DNA of 64,000 nucleotides from Candidatus Binatia bacterium (lineage in GTDB: Bacteria > Desulfobacterota > Binatia > HRBIN30), in the NCBI GenBank assembly GCA_038245295.1, contig JBBRSP010000028.1, positions 18,732-82,731 of the forward strand. Direction: 5' to 3'. Below, piece by piece: positions 2,066-21,414 of this stretch (position 1 is the first letter of the stretch; each line of letters opens with the position of its first letter). The translations under genes were made by a program, and so were the position numbers. Below the pieces are notes generated by a model. That model did no database searches. It had not been told where the DNA came from and saw nothing but the letters and a program-made list of their open reading frames with translations.

Positions 2066-4420
2066 TCAACGATGAGTAATCGAGATATGACGGCGGCCGG
2101 CCGCACCGATCCGGGCACGCAAATGCCAATGCCCGGTGGCAGCATCGTACGACCACGACTCACCGTCGGCATTCGACGACGCAGGCACCTCTTCCAACGC
2201 ACCGGCTTGCCAACCGGAAATCGCCCGAGGCGGTTGCGCCGACCAGCCATTGATCTCCGCCAGGGAGCCCGGCACGCCGAGAATATCGAAGTGAATCCTT
2301 GGGCCGTCGACGCCAACATGGTCGATGCGGCGGTCGCCCATCGTCGCGTACTTGGTGGTGTCGCCAAAGACGGTGATGTCACCGGGGAGGACTGGGCAGA
2401 CGACGCGGTAGTCCCAGTCTTGGAATCCAAGGCCGGCATCCCACCCACCGGTGCTGTCCAGACGCATCGAAGTGCCGCGACGCCAATCGTAGACGATCAC
2501 CGGCTGACTCGGCGCCAGGACACCAAAGTCGCTCAGCTGCACATGGAATGCGAGGTCCTGTTTCTCGCGCCAGGCGTTGAAGCTCGTCACATACAGCCAG
2601 GTTCCCGCCGGGTGCTCCGAGTAACACTCGCCGATCAACGGTTCGGCGAAGAGAAAGGCGTTATGGCGGAAGCAACGATCGAGAGCAGCGATCGGCACAT
2701 CGGGTTTGATCAACACACCGTCCTCGCGACAGGTGCGCAGGATCAGGTCGCGATTGGCGTGACCGATCTGATCGCCAATCCCGACGGGCCCGGTGCTGAG
2801 CGCCGACAACATTGCCTCGATCTCGGCGTACGGCTCGCCACCGTGCTGCGGCGTTGGGCCGTGCGACAGGAAGAGATCCTTGAAGGCGCGCAATCCGAGG
2901 GCGCGCGCCATGGCGTTGGTTTGGAGGAACCACACCCAGTTGAGCCCGTTGTCGAACAGGTAGCGGTAGTCGCCGCTGGTGCGGATCGAGGCCAGGTTGC
3001 GCAGGCTGACGCTTTGCATGAAGTCGGCGGGTGTCGACATGCACCACATGAGGTGCAGCCCATGTTCGCCGGCGGCGCGATCCATGTTCTCCTGCCACTC
3101 GCGGGCGCGATCCGGCACCTCGCGCAACCCACGCACATGGAGGAAGGAATCAACCATCCAGTCTTGTTCGTACGTCTCGGCACCCCAACGCTCCGCATTC
3201 GCCATCATCTCGTCGTACAACTCGGGTCCCGACGGATGGGCAAACTCGCGGTCGCGCCAGGCGGCGTATCGTTCGAAATACGGCGAGTCGATCGAGAAGT
3301 GCCGGCTGTGGAACGACAGCGGCAGATGGCCGAGGCGTGATTGCAGCGACGTGAAGCCTTCCGGGAACAAGTCAGGGCGCGGCTCCCACAGCATCATGCC
3401 GCTCGGCGGCACGAGATCGGCGCCGGCATCACTGACCTCACGTGGGATGCGGTGGCTGTAGAACCACGAGTCCAAATGCACCGAGGCGATCGGCACGTCG
3501 CGCGCGTCGAGATCATCGACCACTTTCTCGAGCGTCTGCGTGTAATCGCAGCCGGGCTCGGTGCGGTAGTAATAGACGCCGCCGTTGTCGGTCCAATACG
3601 ACAACTTGCCGAGCAGGTCGTCGCAGTAGCGACTGAGACGGCGCGTATGATGGCGTTGCTGCAGCAACGTGCCCCACTCGGTCAGCGCCTGGCGCGGCGT
3701 CGGCGCCGCCCATACGGCGAACTCCGTGGCAAAACCTTCCGGGACGAGGGACAGATCACCATGCCAGCCACACAGAACACCGTGCTCGGCGTGTTCCGCG
3801 TCTGGCGGCACCGAGATGATCTGCTCATGGAACTGATTGAGTGGGGCCAGCAGAAGGGTTCGGCAGTCCGGCGCGATCCAGCACAACGGCTCGACGACGC
3901 TGACCCGATGCGGCGCCATCAGAAAGCCGCGGCAGGCATCGTCACCGCTGACCGGCAAAGCAAACTCGGCGTATTGATAGCCAAAGGTGCGCGTGTCGGG
4001 AGCGATGCCGTCGGCGGACCGCCGAAGCGGGAAGAATGCCGGCCACGCCAACGTCGGCTGCACGAACGATCCGCTACCCAACTGGCACAGGGCTTCGGGA
4101 GCTTCGCTCCGAAAGACCAGGAGTGGGCGCTGTGCATAGGCGCGCACGGAGGTGTGCGCGGCGAAAGGCATGCCGCCCCATTCGATGCGCACGGCTTCGA
4201 AAGCGCCGAGATCGTCGCTGCCGTGAGAGCGCGTCAACGACGGACTCAGACGTTCGTCGCCGACTGCGCCGGCACCGTGACGCACCACCTCGCCGGCGCG
4301 CGCGATGATGCCGAGCGGACCCAGCCAATCAGCCTCGCGCCAGGCAATGCGCCAGTGGGGCGCGTCGTCCAACAACAAGGTCAGACCATCGGCAGCGTGC
4401 AACTCGATTGGTACCGTCAT
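2066..4420 (-). CDS. Putative glycoside hydrolase, clan GH-D-like (GH27/31/36) TIM barrel, 784 aa
   Basis: SYWTDNGGVYYY, HLDSWFY, TYEQDWM (candidate nucleophile Asp), IRTSGDY (candidate acid/base Asp), GPVGIGD; start ATG 4420 lies downstream of the repeat insertion. Confidence 0.6.
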   Translation of the reverse strand: MTVPIELHAADGLTLLLDDAPHWRIAWREADWLGPLGIIARAGEVVRHGAGAVGDERLSPSLTRSHGSDDLGAFEAVRIEWGGMPFAAHTSVRAYAQRPLLVFRSEAPEALCQLGSGSFVQPTLAWPAFFPLRRSADGIAPDTRTFGYQYAEFALPVSGDDACRGFLMAPHRVSVVEPLCWIAPDCRTLLLAPLNQFHEQIISVPPDAEHAEHGVLCGWHGDLSLVPEGFATEFAVWAAPTPRQALTEWGTLLQQRHHTRRLSRYCDDLLGKLSYWTDNGGVYYYRTEPGCDYTQTLEKVVDDLDARDVPIASVHLDSWFYSHRIPREVSDAGADLVPPSGMMLWEPRPDLFPEGFTSLQSRLGHLPLSFHSRHFSIDSPYFERYAAWRDREFAHPSGPELYDEMMANAERWGAETYEQDWMVDSFLHVRGLREVPDRAREWQENMDRAAGEHGLHLMWCMSTPADFMQSVSLRNLASIRTSGDYRYLFDNGLNWVWFLQTNAMARALGLRAFKDLFLSHGPTPQHGGEPYAEIEAMLSALSTGPVGIGDQIGHANRDLILRTCREDGVLIKPDVPIAALDRCFRHNAFLFAEPLIGECYSEHPAGTWLYVTSFNAWREKQDLAFHVQLSDFGVLAPSQPVIVYDWRRGTSMRLDSTGGWDAGLGFQDWDYRVVCPVLPGDITVFGDTTKYATMGDRRIDHVGVDGPRIHFDILGVPGSLAEINGWSAQPPRAISGWQAGALEEVPASSNADGESWSYDAATGHWHLRARIGAAGRRHISITHR

Positions 4421-4482
4421 ACGTCGCTCTTCTAAAGGCGAATCGTCGCCGGAGCAAACGCGCGCAGCACCGCAGGCTGAAA

Positions 4483-4616
4483 GAGGCTGTCTCAAAACAT
4501 AGACTCACCCTTCGACGGGCTCAGGGCGAGCGGACAAAATGTCTTTGAAAATCAACCAAGCACCCGCTCAGGCTGAGCCTGTCGAAGCCGGCTCCGCAAG
4601 GTTTTGAGACAGCCTC
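4483..4616. mobile_element. 134-bp MITE-like element inserted in the loop of a GTAG REP
   Basis: Perfect 16-bp TIR GAGGCTGTCTCAAAAC (4483-4498) / GTTTTGAGACAGCCTC (4601-4616); direct repeat TGAAA at 4478-4482 and 4617-4621; flanks rejoin to cgcaggc-TGAAA-gcctgcgcctacc. Confidence 0.85.
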
Positions 4617-4723: not shown

Positions 4724-5095
4724 TCAGAACGGAAGTTCGTATTTGAGAGGAACGCGGCGCTCCTTCGCCGGCCCCTTCCAGCGCCACGCTTTCATGTCGA
4801 TGGCGCCCGAGCGGCTGAAGGCGACGCCTTCTGCTTCGAGCAGCGTGCGCTGACGGTCGGGGCGATAGACGTCGCCGTGAATGCTGATGCGCCCGGCGGC
4901 GTTGACGACGCGTTGCCACGGAACGACGGTGTGAAGTGAGCGCGGCAATTGCCGCAGAGCGGTGCCGACGGCGCGCGCCGCGCGCGGGTGGCCGAGGATG
5001 GCGGCGACCTGACCGTAGGTCACCACCTTGCCGCGTGGCACCCGCCGAACGAGTTGATAGACAGCTCGATGGAAGACGGGGACGCTGGTTTTCAC
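4724..5095 (-). CDS. Alkyltransferase-like protein (Atl/YbaZ, MGMT family)
   Basis: VPRGKVVTYGQVA...ARAVG...VPWQRVVN: Trp replaces the catalytic Cys of the PCHR motif; GTG start overlaps the upstream stop (GTGA). Confidence 0.88.
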   Translation of the reverse strand: MKTSVPVFHRAVYQLVRRVPRGKVVTYGQVAAILGHPRAARAVGTALRQLPRSLHTVVPWQRVVNAAGRISIHGDVYRPDRQRTLLEAEGVAFSRSGAIDMKAWRWKGPAKERRVPLKYELPF

Positions 5096-5385
5096 GCCGA
5101 GTGTGGCAGCGTCTCTGGATTCACCGGCAGCGGCGCCGGTTCCGCTTGCAGGCGCGCCAGGCGACGGAAGTAGAAAACGACGGCGAGGATCATGCCGACA
5201 ATGCCAAACGGCAGCAATGACAATGAGATGGTGCTCCAGAAGTAGGTATCGGACAGCTTGGCGTTGTCTTGGGCCAAACAACCGGGGCATGCGGCAGCCA
5301 GGTTCGGCCCCATCAGCAGAAGAGCACCGACGATGAGGGCTAGCGCCGCTCGCGGGTTAGATCTCGTCGCCCCGGCGAAGACCAA
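5092..5385 (-). CDS. Small membrane protein with CPGC motif, oxidase-operon associated (start uncertain)
   Basis: Hydrophobic signal-like segment ending AAA-CPGC, one TM helix (FWSTISLSLLPFGIVGMILAVVFYF), basic RR; stop coupled to the Atl start. Confidence 0.65.
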   Translation of the reverse strand: MVFAGATRSNPRAALALIVGALLLMGPNLAAACPGCLAQDNAKLSDTYFWSTISLSLLPFGIVGMILAVVFYFRRLARLQAEPAPLPVNPETLPHSA

Positions 5386-5473: not shown

Positions 5474-6067
5474 CTACTGATAGACGACGACATAAAGCAC
5501 CAGCCAGACGAAAATGATGAAGAACCAATAGATCTGCGCCGCACTGACGCCTCCGAAGTGGGTGGCTGAGTAGCGACCACGACGCGTGTCGTATGCCACA
5601 ATCGCCAAGAACAACAGCCCACCCAGCAGGTGGATCGCATGGGCGCCGACCAACGTGTAGAAAACGCCGGCGTAGTTGCCGCCGCTCGCCCCGAGCCCGT
5701 GATTGACCAACCGGATCCACTCGCTGCCCTGCACGACCAAGAATATTGTTCCGAGGGCGGCGGTGATCGCCAGCCACTGAGCCGCCGTTCGGATATTGCT
5801 GCGACGCAGCGCTCCCGAGGCACGCGCAACGGTGAAGCCGCTGAACAACAGGAGTGCGGTATTCGCCGCCGTGACGGGGCCGGGCAGACGCGGCTGATTC
5901 GGTGGGGGCCAGGCAATCGCCCCGGCTTTCAAGATCATGAAGGCGCTCATCAAGCCGGCGAAGAACATCGTCGCCGCACCGATGAAGATGAGGACGCCGA
6001 TGACGGCACTCGGCACCAGAGGCCGTGTCGGGCCAACGCCCGATCTCATAGGCAGGGCAGCGCCCAT
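5474..6067 (-). CDS. Heme-copper oxidase subunit III-like protein (second, short paralog)
   Basis: Five TM helices, NTALLLFSG, FYTLVGAHAIHLLGG, YWFF. Confidence 0.88.
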   Translation of the reverse strand: MGAALPMRSGVGPTRPLVPSAVIGVLIFIGAATMFFAGLMSAFMILKAGAIAWPPPNQPRLPGPVTAANTALLLFSGFTVARASGALRRSNIRTAAQWLAITAALGTIFLVVQGSEWIRLVNHGLGASGGNYAGVFYTLVGAHAIHLLGGLLFLAIVAYDTRRGRYSATHFGGVSAAQIYWFFIIFVWLVLYVVVYQ

Positions 6068-6379
6068 CTACTCATGCGCTTCCATCGCCGGGGGCGGCGG
6101 CGGCGCTTTACGCGGATCCAGCGTCGCATCCGCAACGATGTAGATCAGGATTCCTGCCAACACGACGGGAATTCCGATGAGAGCGTAAATCATCGAAGGC
6201 ACGCCGTGGACATGCATGTAGTGGCGCAGCACCAGGAACGCCTTGACCACGGCAACAGCGAAGATGAGGTAGACGGCGATGCCGTGCGGCAGCTTGAGGC
6301 AAGCGACGCCAAGCACCAGCAAGACCATCAAGAAGATCCAGATGGTTCCGTATCCGATCGAGGGCTTTTCTGCACTCAT
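6068..6379 (-). CDS. Cytochrome c oxidase subunit IV family protein
   Basis: Three TM helices, AVVKAFLVLRHYMH motif; position within the operon. Confidence 0.85.
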   Translation of the reverse strand: MSAEKPSIGYGTIWIFLMVLLVLGVACLKLPHGIAVYLIFAVAVVKAFLVLRHYMHVHGVPSMIYALIGIPVVLAGILIYIVADATLDPRKAPPPPPAMEAHE

Positions 6380-6404: not shown

Positions 6405-7004
6405 TCACGCCAAGTAGAGGAGCGGGAAGAGGAAGATCCACACCACGTCGACGAAGTGCCAATACAAGCCGGCATACTCGACGCGATGTTTCACCAGATC
6501 CCAACTCGCGCGATAAGTTGCCAGGAAGAGGATGAAGTTGACGATGATGCCGCCAATGACGTGTAGCCCATGCAGCCCGGTCATAGTGTAATAGAATGAC
6601 CAGAACGTGCTCGTCCAAGGCACAAACCCGTGGCTGATTTCGCGCGAGTACTCGAAGGTCTTGAAGCACAGGAACAGGCAGCCGAGGAGTACCGTAATCA
6701 ACAGATTACGGCGCGCGCCTTCGCGATCACCCGCTTCGGCGGCGGCGTGTGCCTGCACGATGGTCAGACTGCTGGTGACCAGGACAATCGTATTCATGAT
6801 GGCGATCGTCGCGTTGAGGTGGGCGCGCTCGGCATCCCAACCGCCAGCGGCGATGCGCATCAGCGCATAGGTGCCCATGAAGGTTCCAAAGACGCAGATT
6901 TCGGAAGATAAGAACCACCACATCCCAGCCCGCCCGAAGGGCAGTTGGGCGAACGGGCCGCCTTCGTACTGCGGATGTGCTGCGGTTGTCGTGGCGCTGC
7001 TCAT
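6405..7004 (-). CDS. coxC: Cytochrome c oxidase subunit III
   Basis: [50 protein letters not shown] overlap with subunit I. Confidence 0.92.
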
Positions 7005-8725
7005 GACACACCTCGTACGGATGGCACCCACTGCGGCGTCCAGTCCTGTTTCGCGCCCGGCTCGCTAAAATCGTAGGGATCACGATACACCGTCGGGACC
7101 GTCTCGAAATTGATGTGCGGCGGCGGTGACGACGTCGCCCATTCCAGCGTGTTGGCGTTCCACGGATTGTCGCCCGCTACTTCGCCGGCGAAGTAGCTCC
7201 ACACGATGTTGATGACCAACAGGCTCTGCGCCAGGATCAGAACGATCGCGGCGTACGTGACGAATACGTGCGTCGGCTGGATCTCCTTCAAGAACTCGTA
7301 CTGCAGCGGGTTGTAGATGCGCCGCATGTGGCCGGCGATGCCGACGAAGAACAGCGGGATGAAAACGCAGTTGAAGGACACCGTCGTGATCAAGCAGTGC
7401 AGCTTGCCAAGAGTCTCGTTCATCATGCGGCCGGTCATCTTGGGGAACCAGTAGTAGAGACCGGTGAAGCCGCCGAGAAACACCGACGGGAACAACGTGT
7501 AGTGGAAGTGCGCCACCACGTAGTAGGTGCCGTGGAGATAGATATCGATGGCCGCCGAGCCGAGGAAGATGCCGGTAACGCCGCCGACCAGGAAGGTGGC
7601 GAGAGTAGAAAGCGCAAACAGCATCGGCGTGGCAAATCGAATCGACGCACCCCAAAGGGTGGCGATCATCGAAAACATCATCACGGCGAACGGCACCGAG
7701 ATGAGGATCGTGGTGATGCTGAATGGTGTCGCGAGACGCGCATCGATGCCGCTGACAAACATGTGGTGCGCCCACACGACGAAGCTCAAGATCCCGGCAG
7801 CAATCGTCGAGTAGATGATCGCCTTGTACCCGTAGACCGGCTTGCGCGAGAACACCGGCAAGACCTCGAGGATCATGCCGAAACCCGGCAGGAGAACGAC
7901 GTACACTTCGGGGTGACCGAAGAACCAGAACAGGTGCTGGAAGAGCAACGGGTCGCCGCCACGCGCCGGCAGGAAGAAGCCCGTGCCCATCGTCCGATCG
8001 AGCAGCAGCATGATACCGCCGGCTGCGATCGGCCCAACCGACAGCATGAACAGCACGGCGGCAGTGATCTCCATCCAGACGAACAGCGGCAGACGCCAAA
8101 GCGACAAGCCCGGGGCGCGCATGTTGATCGTCGTCACCATGAAGTTCACACCGCCCATCAGGAACGAAGCGAACTCGACGATGATCGCCAGCAGCCACAA
8201 ATGGCCGCCCCAGTTGACGCCGCTCAGATTAGGATCGGCGGAGAGTGGGGGATACGACGTCCAACCGCCGGCCGCCGGACCACCCGGAACGAACCACGAT
8301 GCCGTGAGGATGCAGGACGCCACGAAGATCGTCCAGAACGACATCATGTTGAGCCGCGGGAAAGCCATATCTGGAGCCCCGACCATCAATGGTAGGAAGT
8401 AATTGCCGAACCCGCCGAGCAAGATCGGCATGGCAACGAAGAAGATCATAATCGTGCCATGCATGGTGACGAATGCGTTGTATTGATCTGGCCCGAAGAA
8501 TCCCGACTCCTGCATCAATCCCAGGATCGGTGCTTCGGTCTCCGGCCATGCCAGCTGCCAGCGAATGAGAAACGCGGTGAAGCCGCCGATGATCGCCATC
8601 GCGAAACCGAGCGTCAGGTACTGCTTGCCGATCACCTTGTGGTCGACCGAGAAGATGTACTTGCGCCAGAACGATGTCGGCTCGTGGTGCCCCGCGTGTA
8701 CTTCTGCGTGTGCTCCTGCCTGCAT
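7001..8725 (-). CDS. coxA: Heme-copper oxidase subunit I, A-family, with atypical K-channel
   Basis: [58 protein letters not shown] pair. Confidence 0.96.
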
Positions 8726-8749
8726 GATCTCTACCTTCCCCTCAGCAAG

Positions 8750-9460
8750 TTAACTGGCCGTGTCGTTGGTCGACGCCGCTTTTGCCGTGGCAGGCCAACG
8801 CTCGGATACCCACTTGTCGTACTCTTCGGGTGTGTGGACGAAGAACGCGCCCTTCATCCCAGAGTGGCCGAAGCCGCACAACTCGGCACAGACGACCTCG
8901 TATTCTCCCGGCTTGGTCGCATTGAACCACATCTTGATGGTGCGGCCGGGAACAGCGTCCTGCTTGAGCCGCACGTTGGGTAGGAAGAAGCTGTGCAAAA
9001 CGTCCTTGGCCTGCAGATCCAACAGAATGTTCTTGTTGACCGGAACGTGCAACTCGTCGCCGATGGTCAGATCATCATCGGTGCCGAACTTGCCGTCCGG
9101 CCCCGGGTAGGTGAACTCCCACTGGAATTGCTTGCCGCTGACGTGAACCTCAACGCCCGAGGTCGGGAAGTGATCGACTTCCTTGATGCGCGCCCACAGC
9201 GGGCCGCTCTTGGCTTCGATGACCATATCCAACCCGAAGACGATGATGGTGGGAACGAGGACCCACGCCAGTTGGCTCCAGGTGTCGCCTCGGATGTACT
9301 GCGCCGGGTGTCCGGCGCGGCGACGGTAGCGTATCATCAAGTAGAATAGGAGAACTTCCGCGGCGACGAACCAGGCGCCGACGACGTAGTATACGAAGTA
9401 ATACAGGGAATCGAGATCGCCCCCGTAGGTGGAGATATTCTCCGGAAACCAACTACCCAT
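8750..9460 (-). CDS. coxB: Cytochrome c oxidase subunit II (CuA; no fused cytochrome c)
   Basis: Two TM helices, QFQWEFTY, DVLHSF, CAELCGFGHSGM CuA motif; GAGGAG RBS. Confidence 0.95.
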   Translation of the reverse strand: MGSWFPENISTYGGDLDSLYYFVYYVVGAWFVAAEVLLFYLMIRYRRRAGHPAQYIRGDTWSQLAWVLVPTIIVFGLDMVIEAKSGPLWARIKEVDHFPTSGVEVHVSGKQFQWEFTYPGPDGKFGTDDDLTIGDELHVPVNKNILLDLQAKDVLHSFFLPNVRLKQDAVPGRTIKMWFNATKPGEYEVVCAELCGFGHSGMKGAFFVHTPEEYDKWVSERWPATAKAASTNDTAS

Positions 9461-9658: not shown

Positions 9659-11635
9659 TCACTTGCCGAGACGCATCAACGCACCCGACTCGAAGATCGT
9701 CGGATCAATCGGCAAACGCCGGATATAGGTTCCCTTCTCGGTGACCCGTGCGCCGCCGAGGCTGGCGCGATTCATCTTGAAGTTCTCCGCGACGTTCCAC
9801 GGTCGCGGCTCGCACTCGAGGGATTCAGCATCGGCTTGCGCTCCGGTCACCTGGTTGATGCGACCCAAGACCTGGTAGGTCGAGATATGATCGCCGGTCC
9901 AGGCAAACTTGCGGTGATACGAGCCGTCCCACGTTTCCGCGTCGATCCACAACTCGATACGTCCGAAGAGGTAGTACTTGTCGCGCGGCCGGCCTTCGAC
10001 GATCCACACCGGCCGGCGCGCCAGCACCGCCGAAGGCATCGCCCACGGAACGCCCGTCCAGCCCTTCATCTCGAAGCCGTAGTAATTGGTCTCCTTGCCG
10101 ACGACTTCCCAACCACCGCCGGGGACAGGCTGCGGCTTGCAACTGCCGGAGACGGCGTCGGGATCGAGCAGGCGCAATGCGTCGCGTTGTTCGACCAGCT
10201 TCCAATCGAACTCCTGCGGTTTGCCGTCGAAGAAGTTGCCATCGTCGGCACAGACGTCGGTGCCGAGATATCCATCCGAACGGTTGGCCGGACTGACGGC
10301 GCGGACGCGGCGCAGCGCCGGCACAAAGGCCCAGTTGGAATCGCGCTTCTCGGGATCGTGATAACGCCAGGTCAGCGACGCCGTTCCTTGCAAGTCAGCC
10401 GGCGCCAACACGAAGCCGAGGAACTGTTCCTGCAAGTCGAGAGGATTCTCGGCCGGCCGGTACTTCGGCGAGGCGCCCTGGTAATACAGGTACCAACCTT
10501 CGGCGGCGAGTTGTCGCTCGACACCTTTGGCGCTCATCATCACCAAGCGGTTGTGGGTATGGACATTGCCTTCGTACCAGACGGCGACGGCCTGATTCCA
10601 AACCACTTTGACACCCGCCTTCGGATCTTTGATGTCGATGTTCGGGAACGGAATGCCGTAAAGGTACGGCGGTTGTTGTCCGGTGGACTTGTCGATGATC
10701 GTGCCGCGATCGTCGACGGTGAACCGATCGGCGTTGGCCTTGGTGGCAGCGACCCACGCCGCCTCCCACCGCGGTCCACCCGACGGGTAACTGACGATCT
10801 TGTTGCGATACCCACCCTGCTCGTAATGTCGCAGGATTTCCGGTGGCAACAGATCCTGGGCCAGCTGAGCGTTCTCCCGCCCAAGCGTGTCACCCGGATG
10901 GAGTGCGCCGGCCGCCGCCGGTTCCTTCTTCTCGACCTCGGGCGGGATGGTTGGTGTCGCCGCGACCGCCGCAGTCTTGGTGGCCTTTAGAGCGGTTGCC
11001 GTCGCCGCGGCCGTGGTCGCCGATGTTGGCGAAGCTATCGCGGCACGAGTCGTCGGTGTCGCGGCTTTTTCGACCGCCGTTTTCGCGGCGACGGTCGGCA
11101 CGGCAGTCGGCGGCTTGGGCGGCGCCGCGACCGGCTCAGAGGCTGGCTTGGCGGCGGCCGCGGCACCACCGGCTGCAACGACAGCAGCGCTCCATACCCA
11201 TCCGTCCTCTCCCTGTGCTGTGCGCACATGGTAGAACCCGCGGGTCGGTGCCGGATCCACCAAGTCCAGTGTCTCCCCTTCGTTCAGCATGCGAACCGGA
11301 GCTTGCCGGGTCGACGCGTCACTTCGCAGGCTGGCCCCCTGCAGAAGTTGCAGTCGCGCACCTTCGGTGCCGGCGAGCCGATCAAGGCGCACGTTGCGCG
11401 CCCACGCCCAGCCGGTTTCATCTTTCCTGGTGTGGACCTTGTAGTAGCCGTTTTCGAACACCAAACCCGGAAGGTCTACGGGTTCTCCCGCAGGCAACAA
11501 TCGCAGTGGCTGTCGGTTCATTGACGCATCGGGTCGCAGGTTGGAGTTTCTTTTGATTACCGCTGTTTGCGCGCTTGCCGCGCCCACCCCACGTATAATC
11601 GAGGCTCCTACCAGCACACGTCGAACGATTGGCAT
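9659..11635 (-). CDS. DUF1329-domain protein with two N-terminal SH3b-like domains and an Ala/Pro/Thr linker
   Basis: Two NLR/SLR...GE.(V/L)D...G(Y/F)Y.V.T...GW.W repeats; C-terminal GIPFP, WAFVPALRRVR, RPVWIVEGRPRDKYY; paralogous to 57768-59060. Confidence 0.8.
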   Translation of the reverse strand: MPIVRRVLVGASIIRGVGAASAQTAVIKRNSNLRPDASMNRQPLRLLPAGEPVDLPGLVFENGYYKVHTRKDETGWAWARNVRLDRLAGTEGARLQLLQGASLRSDASTRQAPVRMLNEGETLDLVDPAPTRGFYHVRTAQGEDGWVWSAAVVAAGGAAAAAKPASEPVAAPPKPPTAVPTVAAKTAVEKAATPTTRAAIASPTSATTAAATATALKATKTAAVAATPTIPPEVEKKEPAAAGALHPGDTLGRENAQLAQDLLPPEILRHYEQGGYRNKIVSYPSGGPRWEAAWVAATKANADRFTVDDRGTIIDKSTGQQPPYLYGIPFPNIDIKDPKAGVKVVWNQAVAVWYEGNVHTHNRLVMMSAKGVERQLAAEGWYLYYQGASPKYRPAENPLDLQEQFLGFVLAPADLQGTASLTWRYHDPEKRDSNWAFVPALRRVRAVSPANRSDGYLGTDVCADDGNFFDGKPQEFDWKLVEQRDALRLLDPDAVSGSCKPQPVPGGGWEVVGKETNYYGFEMKGWTGVPWAMPSAVLARRPVWIVEGRPRDKYYLFGRIELWIDAETWDGSYHRKFAWTGDHISTYQVLGRINQVTGAQADAESLECEPRPWNVAENFKMNRASLGGARVTEKGTYIRRLPIDPTIFESGALMRLGK

Positions 11636-19998: not shown

Positions 19999-21414
19999 AT
20001 GAAGCGAGCGCGATTGTACATTCTTGCGGCAGCCATCACGGTGCTCGCCGCTTGCGGCGAAGATTCGTCCGGTGGGGCAGCCAGCGGCGGGGGCACACCG
20101 GAGCCTCAAGCCGCATGGGGGCCGAGCATCGTCTATCCGACCGCACGCAGGGCGAACTCTCGTGGCTATCTCGACCGGCGCGGCCTCATCCATGCGCACA
20201 GCTATTATTCGCACGACGCGTGCGACAATGAGCCGGTGAAGAACGGCCAGCGTGACCCGATCTGTTTCGACGACTTCCGCCGCGGCTTGTGCCAGTCGCA
20301 GCACGATTTCGTGATGCTGTCGGATCACAGCGCATCGTTCTCCGAGTACGAGTTCCCGGATGTGCTGCTCTACCGGCCGGATCGTGGCGATCGCCTGGTC
20401 AACCGCAACACCAAACCAGTCGCTTCGTGGGCCAGCTGCCCGGATGGTAGCTCCGCCCTGGTCATGGCGGGTGCCGAGTCAGGTTTCATGCCAGTCGGGC
20501 TGGAAGAACACGTCGCCGCATCGGTTGACGAACGCAATGCGATCTACACCAGTAAGACTCTCAACGCTCTCGAGGCGCAGCGCAGCAAGGGTGCGGCGAT
20601 TCTAATCGCCCACCCGGAAGACTGGACCGCGGACCAACTCGGCACCCTGCCGATCGACGGCTTTGAGATGTACAACCTGCACGCCAATCTGCTGCGCAAC
20701 CCGGGCCCGGCGCTCGAGTTGCTCTTGCGCGTCGACCAGGGCGATCCGCAACTACCGCATTCCGATCTGATCCTGCTGTCGCTGATCACCGAAGACCCGC
20801 GTTACCTGAGCCGCTGGGGCTCGGTACTGGCGAGCGGCGTCAAACGCACGACCACCATGGGCACCGATTGCCACCGCAACACGTTCACGGCGATCCTGCC
20901 GGACGGCGAACGCGGCGACAGCTACCGGCGCTTGATGCTGTGGTTCTCCAACCACCTGCTGATTCGCCCTGAAGTCAACGGCACGTGGGATGATCGGCAT
21001 GTGAAGGAGGCACTGAAAAACGGGCGACTCTACGGCGCCTTCGAGGTCATGGGTTATCCCGACGGCTTCGACTACCATGCGCAAGCCGGCAACAGTGTCT
21101 TCGAGATGGGTGGTGAGATCAACCTGGCGCAACACCCGGTGCTGCAAGCAACGGCGCCGAAGGTTCACAATCTCAACCCAGAGCGCACACCGCCGCAGAT
21201 CAAGACACGCTTGCTGCGCGCCATCCCGGGCGGCTTCGAAAGCGTTGCCGAAGGAGAGTCAGGGGTGTCGTTCACGCCTAGTATTACCGGCGCGTATCGC
21301 GTCGAAGTCCGCATGGTGCCGCGTCACCTGCGCGAAGACCTCGGTCGCGATGCCGACAAATTGCTCGCCAAGGACTACGTGTGGATCTACTCGAATCCTA
21401 TCTATGTGCGCTGA
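19999..21414 (+). CDS. Lipoprotein with PHP-like metallohydrolase domain
   Basis: LAAC lipobox; HAHSYYSHD, SDH, AHP, GTDCH; ends YSNPIYV. Confidence 0.72.
   Translation: MKRARLYILAAAITVLAACGEDSSGGAASGGGTPEPQAAWGPSIVYPTARRANSRGYLDRRGLIHAHSYYSHDACDNEPVKNGQRDPICFDDFRRGLCQSQHDFVMLSDHSASFSEYEFPDVLLYRPDRGDRLVNRNTKPVASWASCPDGSSALVMAGAESGFMPVGLEEHVAASVDERNAIYTSKTLNALEAQRSKGAAILIAHPEDWTADQLGTLPIDGFEMYNLHANLLRNPGPALELLLRVDQGDPQLPHSDLILLSLITEDPRYLSRWGSVLASGVKRTTTMGTDCHRNTFTAILPDGERGDSYRRLMLWFSNHLLIRPEVNGTWDDRHVKEALKNGRLYGAFEVMGYPDGFDYHAQAGNSVFEMGGEINLAQHPVLQATAPKVHNLNPERTPPQIKTRLLRAIPGGFESVAEGESGVSFTPSITGAYRVEVRMVPRHLREDLGRDADKLLAKDYVWIYSNPIYVR

Follow-up and report, generated by a model that had tools for sequence, protein, structure and literature searches.

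Oxidase operon and residues of its core subunits

We analyzed 64,000 nucleotides from a Candidatus Binatia bacterium (GenBank assembly GCA_038245295.1, contig JBBRSP010000028.1, positions 18,732 to 82,731 of the forward strand), a stretch that we call the window and by which positions are counted, and focused on a six-gene operon on its minus strand that encodes an A-family heme-copper oxidase. The operon comprises coxB (8750..9460), for a 236-amino-acid subunit II with two membrane helices and a CuA domain, matches in the PDB and no fused cytochrome c; coxA (7001..8725), for a 574-amino-acid A1-type subunit I with the GHPEVY motif and an apparently plugged K-channel; coxC1 (6405..7004, 199 amino acids, subunit III-like), whose start overlaps the coxA stop; coxD (6068..6379, 103 amino acids, subunit IV-like), matching PF03626 at 29.3 bits for a cut-off of 28.9; coxC2 (5474..6067), for a second subunit III-like protein of 197 amino acids; and orfX (5092..5385, start codon uncertain), for a small protein with a CPxC motif followed by one membrane helix. 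All six genes are intact, and their order is conserved among the loci of the clade described below. The coxB product scored over the TIGR02866 cut-off (163 bits for 147.7) and the coxA product under that of TIGR02891 (604 bits for 670.75). A promoter and terminator scan of the operon stayed at chance level.

Subunit I was aligned to the P. denitrificans structure 1AR1 using phmmer, with no gaps across helices IV, VI and VIII; residue numbers follow R. sphaeroides and were taken from the 1M56 alignment. An earlier note on this DNA had listed six His ligands, the Glu and Tyr of GHPEVY and the D-channel residues in subunit I, as well as CuA in subunit II, and all were recovered: the query keeps the six ligands, E286, Y288, D132, N121, N139, N207 and R481/R482, and the CuA motif. 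Helix VIII ([15 protein letters not shown]) aligned on AVPTGIKVFSW and GMILEV on GIISHV, which places Met349 (ATG, 7679-7681) at K362, Phe346 (7688..7690) at T359 and Leu286 (7868..7870) at S299, the three K-channel substitutions that had been read by eye. YLHGT aligned on VYHDT, with Gly399 (7529-7531) at the Mg-site position D412, and Gln63 of subunit II (CAA, 9272-9274) occupies the position of E101. Four further features belong to the same picture: Glu184 (8174..8176), gained in the D-channel wall where S197 would stand; Phe188 (8162..8164), which replaces a polar residue of that wall at the S201 position; a polar stripe on helix VIII (7697..7720) made of Ser336 (position 349), Thr339 (T352) and Ser343 (A356→S); and Asp78 of subunit II (9227..9229), gained in membrane helix 2, 15 residues past the E101 position.

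In a phmmer search against the PDB the query matched aa3 oxidases at E 1e-128 and ba3 oxidases only at E ~1e-8 to 1e-10. An AlphaFold2 model of subunit I, built from a 33-row alignment, had a predicted local distance difference test score of 78.5 and a predicted template modelling (TM) score of 0.84, with continuous helices at residues 173-201 and 329-357 and low confidence at residues 387-402. The best 50 ranks of a Foldseek search with this model were all A-family oxidases (TM 0.79-0.83), so the predicted fold is that of the A family. By descent and fold the enzyme is an A1 oxidase, and it is not a canonical two-channel member.

Homologs, phylogeny and selection

To assess conservation, we collected 239 subunit I homologs, namely the best 119 of 7941 passing sequences from a search with the query and the best 120 of 7589 from a search with a distant member; the two sets share no sequence, and the second extends down to 50% identity to the query. 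They were compared with 76 canonical and 9 K-bearing sister subunits I. Lys362 was found in none of the 239, and position 359 was Phe in 227, Val in 9, Leu in 2 and Ile in 1, never Thr or Ser. Since Phe359 occurs in 119/119 and Lys362 in 0/119 of the closest homologs, neither chance nor an assembly error accounts for the query residues. Position 299 was most often Leu (122), Ala (60), Cys (12) or Phe (11), and is Ser in all 76 canonical enzymes. The catalytic core is retained: H284, E286, Y288, H333, H334, H419, H421, R481 and R482 occur in 238-239 homologs, and in the D-channel E286 and N207 are kept in 239, N121 in 238 and D132 and N139 in 237. The O2-channel residues F282, G283, V287 and W172 are likewise kept in 238-239; a high-affinity O2-channel signature was considered and rejected, F282 and W172 being unchanged.

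We built a tree of 49 rows with IQ-TREE (LG+G4, short search) after removing the trait columns of helices IV, VI and VIII. The query and its K-less homologs formed a single clade of 24 rows among K-bearing relatives, with a Shimodaira-Hasegawa-like approximate likelihood ratio (SH-aLRT) of 99. The ratio of nonsynonymous to synonymous substitutions (dN/dS, pairwise NG86) had a median of 0.21 near the query (range 0.05-0.37, 36/36 pairs) and of 0.19 in the K-bearing sister (36 pairs), values that are rough given dS near 1. Purifying selection on the clade equals that on the sister.

The earlier note had proposed that four coordinated changes in two intact genes mark a specialised subfamily rather than decay. 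A conserved subfamily under purifying selection is what we found, with a partly different set of defining residues. The E101 replacement is real in the query and is not a fixed fourth change: among 32 clade genome loci the position is Glu in 18, Gln in 10, Thr in 1, His in 1 and unaligned in 2, and among 57 metagenome loci it is Gln in 29, Glu in 24, Leu in 2 and Gly in 2, for Glu in 25/25 sisters. The K-channel entrance is thus relaxed, not fixed. Gly at D412 is equally present in the query and fails as a clade trait, being found in 60/119 close homologs, 0/120 distant ones and 5/76 canonical enzymes.

The clade appears from its sequences to be a widespread A1 branch that spans several phyla. 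Its members carry the source labels Ca. Binatia, Deltaproteobacteria, Kryptonia, Limnocylindria, Fibrobacteria, Cytophagales, Kapaibacterium, Planctomycetes, Chloroflexi, NC10, Latescibacterota and Rokubacteria. No cultured member was found among the named matches, and the best plasmid match was 46.9% identical. Of the matches listed in a GTDB scan, 74/80 were canonical enzymes; with residues checked, the clade was present in 16/40 relatives and, among the best 30 loci, in at least 13 of 90 genomes of the class. Many of its proteins are named 'cbb3-type' at NCBI.

Acidic residues gained in subunits I and II

The change that spans both genes, unseen by the earlier note, appears to be a gain of acidic residues, Glu197 in subunit I and an Asp near position 116 in subunit II. 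Position 197 is Glu in 239/239 homologs and acidic in 0/76 canonical enzymes and 0/9 K-bearing sisters; Asp at this position was seen in 5 loci of one genus. Position 201 is hydrophobic in 239/239 and G198 is replaced by Phe, Leu or Ile. S197, S200 and S201 have been named as walls of the D-channel (PMC10341450). In subunit II, the helix-2 Asp occurs in 31/32 clade genome loci, 0/25 sisters and 0/73 canonical enzymes. A helix IV motif scan of metagenomes returned at least 119 loci; 57 of their 64 distinct sequences cover the subunit II position and 56 of these 57 carry the Asp, with possible overlap with the genome loci. Glu35 of subunit II helix 1 was examined as a required residue and rejected (Glu in 26, Gln in 6, other in 25 of 57). 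In the outer half of helix VIII, Ser349 is found in 229/239 homologs, Thr352 in 239/239 and Ser356 in 239/239; position 356 is Ala in 76/76 canonical enzymes and 9/9 K-bearing sisters, and T352 is also conserved in canonical enzymes (73/76). Judged from helix register, Asp78 would lie beside the Ser349/Thr352/Ser356 stripe.

We then compared K-less and K-bearing cluster representatives more broadly, 122 of 150 of which cover the region. A helix IV acid was found in 15/44 K-less and 0/78 K-bearing representatives. Of 208 windows, 170 had no acid in K-bearing rows, and among these helix IV ranked first. Most of the 15 belong to one other lineage, with the Glu one position later. Ser or Thr at position 356 occurred in 28/44 K-less and 1/78 K-bearing representatives (independent-pairs p 0.25). 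On the representative tree the lysine was lost or gained 10 times or more. A general link of lysine loss to the helix IV acid, or to A356→S/T, is a lead only. An order of events in which the lysine was lost first and Glu197 gained later was suggested by the tree with all columns and vanished once the trait columns were removed; we claim no order.

Several variants were noted along the way. One subgroup of the clade (L098-L100, L139-L144, P0122) has an extra Glu at position 361, immediately preceding the site of the lost lysine, and genomes G008, G018 and G020 carry both this form and an Asp197 form. In clade member L143 (G247:C26) E286 is replaced by Gly (GHPGVY), with Glu197 and Glu361 kept. 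A separate K-less lineage (P0159, P0163, P0164, P0197, P0202, P0210 and others) has Gln or His at 362, Glu at 198 and usually Glu at N207.

Other oxidases in genomes carrying the clade enzyme

The earlier note had suggested looking for a canonical A-type oxidase in the same genome. Three further oxidases are encoded by the source genome, one of type A1 and one of type A2, both K-bearing, and one B-like; a bd oxidase was not found in it. Both K-bearing A-type oxidases (G000:C8 152486-163967 and 212805-224618) lie in alternative complex III-like operons with NrfD matches and a pentaheme cytochrome c; an alternative complex III-like partner is absent from the K-less operon, as is a cytochrome c domain. 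The B-family-like oxidase, whose subunit II has a fused cytochrome c, lies at G000:C28 14413-16922, ~1.8 kb left of the window start; the K-less operon ends ~7 kb away from it.

Elsewhere the clade enzyme mostly accompanies other oxidases, and in some genomes no other was found. Genome G262 (99% complete, 2% contamination, 40 contigs) has it as its only PF00115 and only PF00116 match, with heme A synthase and cytochrome b present and no bd oxidase found, and G032 (94% complete, 400 contigs) gives the same picture, with heme A synthase kept. These two genomes favour an O2 reductase. Among the other carriers, G015 also has cbb3-like and bd genes and a gene that, by its motif, we take to be qNOR-like. 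In G031 a further heme-copper subunit (L125, G031:C192) reads HPSQQV instead of HPEVY, lacks the Tyr and has no NCBIfam match; it is presumably eNOR-like.

Proposed proton routes and alternatives

In canonical enzymes one or two of the chemical protons of each cycle arrive by the K-channel, during the reductive phase, and all others by the D-channel (PMC8079940; PMC12901375; PMC8361435; PMC8780969). We propose that the clade enzyme is an O2-reducing aa3 oxidase in which Glu197 has retuned the D-channel for all proton uptake from the cytoplasm, Tyr288 is reprotonated with the help of Asp78 of subunit II and the Ser/Thr cluster of helix VIII, and pumping is lower, a reading to which we give a probability of roughly 0.6. 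O2 reduction in some form is highly likely; among the options raised in the earlier note, an oxidase that relies on the D-channel alone or pumps differently comes first.

A separate carrier would hand electrons to CuA, from which they would reach heme a and then the heme a3-CuB-Tyr site; these are cofactors whose ligands are seen and whose chemistry we infer from the family. Phe359, the hydrophobic residue at 362 and Leu299, all seen in the sequence, would plug the cytoplasmic half of the K-channel and leave the D-channel to carry all cytoplasmic-side protons. Glu197, placed by alignment below Glu286, may act as an extra relay in place of the lost Ser201. The one or two protons for Tyr288 could be supplied or buffered by Asp78 with Ser349, Thr352 and Ser356, residues whose conservation is observed and whose geometry and role are conjectured. 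Pumping is probably reduced, the expected cost being fewer than one pumped proton per electron. The R. sphaeroides S197D mutant reportedly turns over without pumping, and the expectation of reduced pumping leans on this phenotype.

Several points weigh against this proposal. K362M alone abolishes oxidase activity in R. sphaeroides (PMC7601700), a high barrier has been proposed between the end of the D-channel and the tyrosine (PMC8079940), and replacing S201 and G198 by Phe could narrow the D-channel rather than help. A 4-residue insertion leaves the register of Asp78 relative to R. sphaeroides ambiguous. Helix IV acids are absent from 29/44 K-less representatives, so K-less oxidases do not generally need Glu197. 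The independent-pairs test of lysine loss against a helix IV acid gave p=1, underpowered at 5 pairs. Finally, 12/13 genomes of the class with the clade enzyme have other PF00115 matches, so it need not carry respiration, and absence from a metagenome-assembled genome is not proof that no other oxidase exists where none was found.

A stronger version, which we regard as tentative and would not bet on, is that as a cell's possible sole oxidase the enzyme runs the whole O2 cycle without a K-channel, Glu197 and the Asp near 116 of subunit II being natural suppressors of K362M. Were this so, transfer of both carboxylates into K362M of R. sphaeroides or P. denitrificans would restore turnover and reveal what the K-channel is for.

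In an alternative kind of O2 reductase, the protons of the reductive phase would enter on the outer (P) side by way of Asp78 and Ser349/Thr352/Ser356, which would make part of the cycle non-electrogenic. The polar residues gained on helix VIII do lie in its outer half and those lost in its inner half, and the nearly invariant Asp78, 15 residues beyond the E101 position, would sit roughly level with the active site if its depth is read correctly; E101 is ~20 Å from Y288 (PMC10341450). The path from there to the surface is conjectural, however, T352 is no novelty of the clade, and the invariance of Glu197 would go unexplained; we consider outer-side entry unlikely.

About as unlikely is an O2 reductase that pumps fully and has exchanged the K-channel for another cytoplasmic route like the 'KC' channel of cbb3 oxidases, the class to which Degli Esposti et al. 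assigned the clade member GBD04318 (PMC8239418). Candidate residues exist: position 300 is acidic in 239/239 homologs, G327 is Ser in 238/239, and S306 and T307 of helix VII are often polar (172/239 and 187/239). Yet K-bearing sisters share the acid at position 300 (9/9) and in part the Ser at 327 (5/9), so neither residue is likely to stand in for the lysine; GBD04318 itself has Ala at both S306 and T307, and Glu35 of subunit II helix 1 is variable, as counted above.

The earlier note had stated that the engineered K362M mutant loses oxidase and keeps peroxidase activity, as is indeed stated for R. sphaeroides (PMC7601700, citing Vygodina 1998), and had raised a peroxide reductase. An enzyme that performs only the oxidative half-cycle, with its D-channel kept and with other oxidases present in most carriers, would resemble that mutant. 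We find this improbable: the clade enzyme is the only oxidase found in the near-complete genomes G262 and G032, where heme A synthase is retained; neither Tyr288 nor the O2-channel residues vary in the clade; and family searches of the window proteins recognised no peroxide-related gene beside the operon.

Reduction of NO or N-oxides, also raised in the earlier note, is very improbable: cNOR and qNOR do function without conserved proton channels (PMC11214002), and carriers G015 and G031 have other NOR-like genes, but the tyrosine cofactor is absent from NO reductases and FeB has a glutamate ligand in cNOR and qNOR (PMC11214002), and Y288 and the three CuB His are found in 239/239 clade homologs. 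A decaying or mis-assembled paralogue, suggested at most by the three other oxidases of the genome and the low TIGR02891 score, is refuted by the clade-wide conservation of the changes down to 50% identity, by the dN/dS range and by the intact, ordered operon.

Relation to described oxidases

With canonical A1 aa3 oxidases (1AR1, 1M56) the query clade shares the fold, the six His, GHPEVY, Tyr288, D132/N121/N139/N207/E286, R481/R482 and the CuA subunit. It differs from them by the loss of K362, T359, S299 and W366, a hydrophobic residue at S201, Glu197, A356→S and the Asp in subunit II helix 2, and the query operon by two subunit III genes, a subunit IV gene and orfX. The K-bearing sister, an A1 group with AVPSAIKTFNW in helix VIII, is 50-55% identical, also has two subunit III genes and occurs in the same host class; unlike the clade, it keeps K362, S/T359, S299 and E101(II) (25/25), has Leu or Phe at 197 and lacks the subunit II Asp. 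It apparently corresponds to the 'Gemmatimonadetes'/a-III neighbourhood of Degli Esposti et al. The engineered R. sphaeroides K362M (PDB 3OM3) and S197D enzymes are altered at the same positions, but each by a single laboratory change. NO reductases (cNOR, qNOR, eNOR and others), as defined in PMC11214002, have lost the Tyr that the clade keeps; the examined parts of that source give no subdivision of the A family. B-family (ba3) enzymes have no D-channel and use a K-analogue channel only, and the query keeps its D-channel.

The clade overlaps the 'KC channel' A1 subclade of Degli Esposti et al. 2021, which was drawn from Elusimicrobia, Ca. Calescamantes HR19 and Methylacidiphilaceae: GBD04318.1 (HR19; P0319 here) falls inside the clade and is listed in a table of PMC8239418, under bacterium HR19, as 'A1 simple operon, KC-channel'. 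The residues printed for it agree with our alignment at Y280, S291, K354, T351 and E292 and disagree at S357. The Elusimicrobia pattern (A299, S359, I362, C365; L105) has no Glu197, and rows matched to it by residue pattern only are sister to the clade at 91 with all columns and a separate branch without the trait columns. The legend of Fig. S9c of PMC8239418 reports no significant D-channel change, the subunit II Asp is not among the residue columns of that study, and the subclade is known from sequence classification, no function having been tested there. Other K-less oxidases are those of acidophilic Fe(II) oxidisers and the CyoCAB subtype (bioRxiv 10.1101/2020.03.01.968255; Ferrigenium, 10.64898/2026.01.22.701106), which, like the query, have a hydrophobic residue at K354/K362, keep the D-channel and often replace the subunit II Glu; compared by description only, the iron-oxidiser group retains T351 and mostly has extra N-terminal helices, and both groups are classed in A2.

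Loss of the lysine alone is not news: A-family oxidases without it have been published (bioRxiv 10.1101/2020.03.01.968255; PMC8239418; 10.64898/2026.01.22.701106), and one clade member has been tabulated. Our literature search turned up no description of Glu197 or of the Asp in subunit II, and no assay of the clade, in a field that mostly publishes in subscription journals outside its reach. Why A-family oxidases have two proton channels is an old open question that has been studied almost only with dead laboratory mutants. The clade offers hundreds of natural, selected K-less sequences and two candidate compensating residues, which brings the matter within reach of ordinary mutagenesis; because both gained carboxylates are near-invariant and sole-oxidase genomes exist, the two-channel question becomes directly testable. 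These genes are at present counted as ordinary low-affinity, fully pumping A-type oxidases, and the energy yield of common uncultured bacteria may be misstated as a result.

Other features of the locus

The orfX motif was found in 13/20 wide clade loci, where the gene closes the operon, and in 0/4 K-bearing sister loci. The product, with a likely signal peptide, the CPxC motif and one membrane helix, had no Pfam or NCBIfam match, and an Atlas search returned hypothetical clusters only; from these features it could be a copper or assembly factor. Two long open reading frames of the window have no Pfam match, at 2066-4495 (minus strand, 809 amino acids) and 19999-21414 (plus strand, 471 amino acids). 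Upstream of the operon and on the same strand, a gene at 9659-11635 (minus strand) encodes a protein with SH3 and DUF1329 domains. The CuA loop of the query subunit II (8750-9460) ends in GHSGMK, as in K-bearing sisters and in clade member L136, and in most close clade members it reads GHYNMR or GHYTMR.

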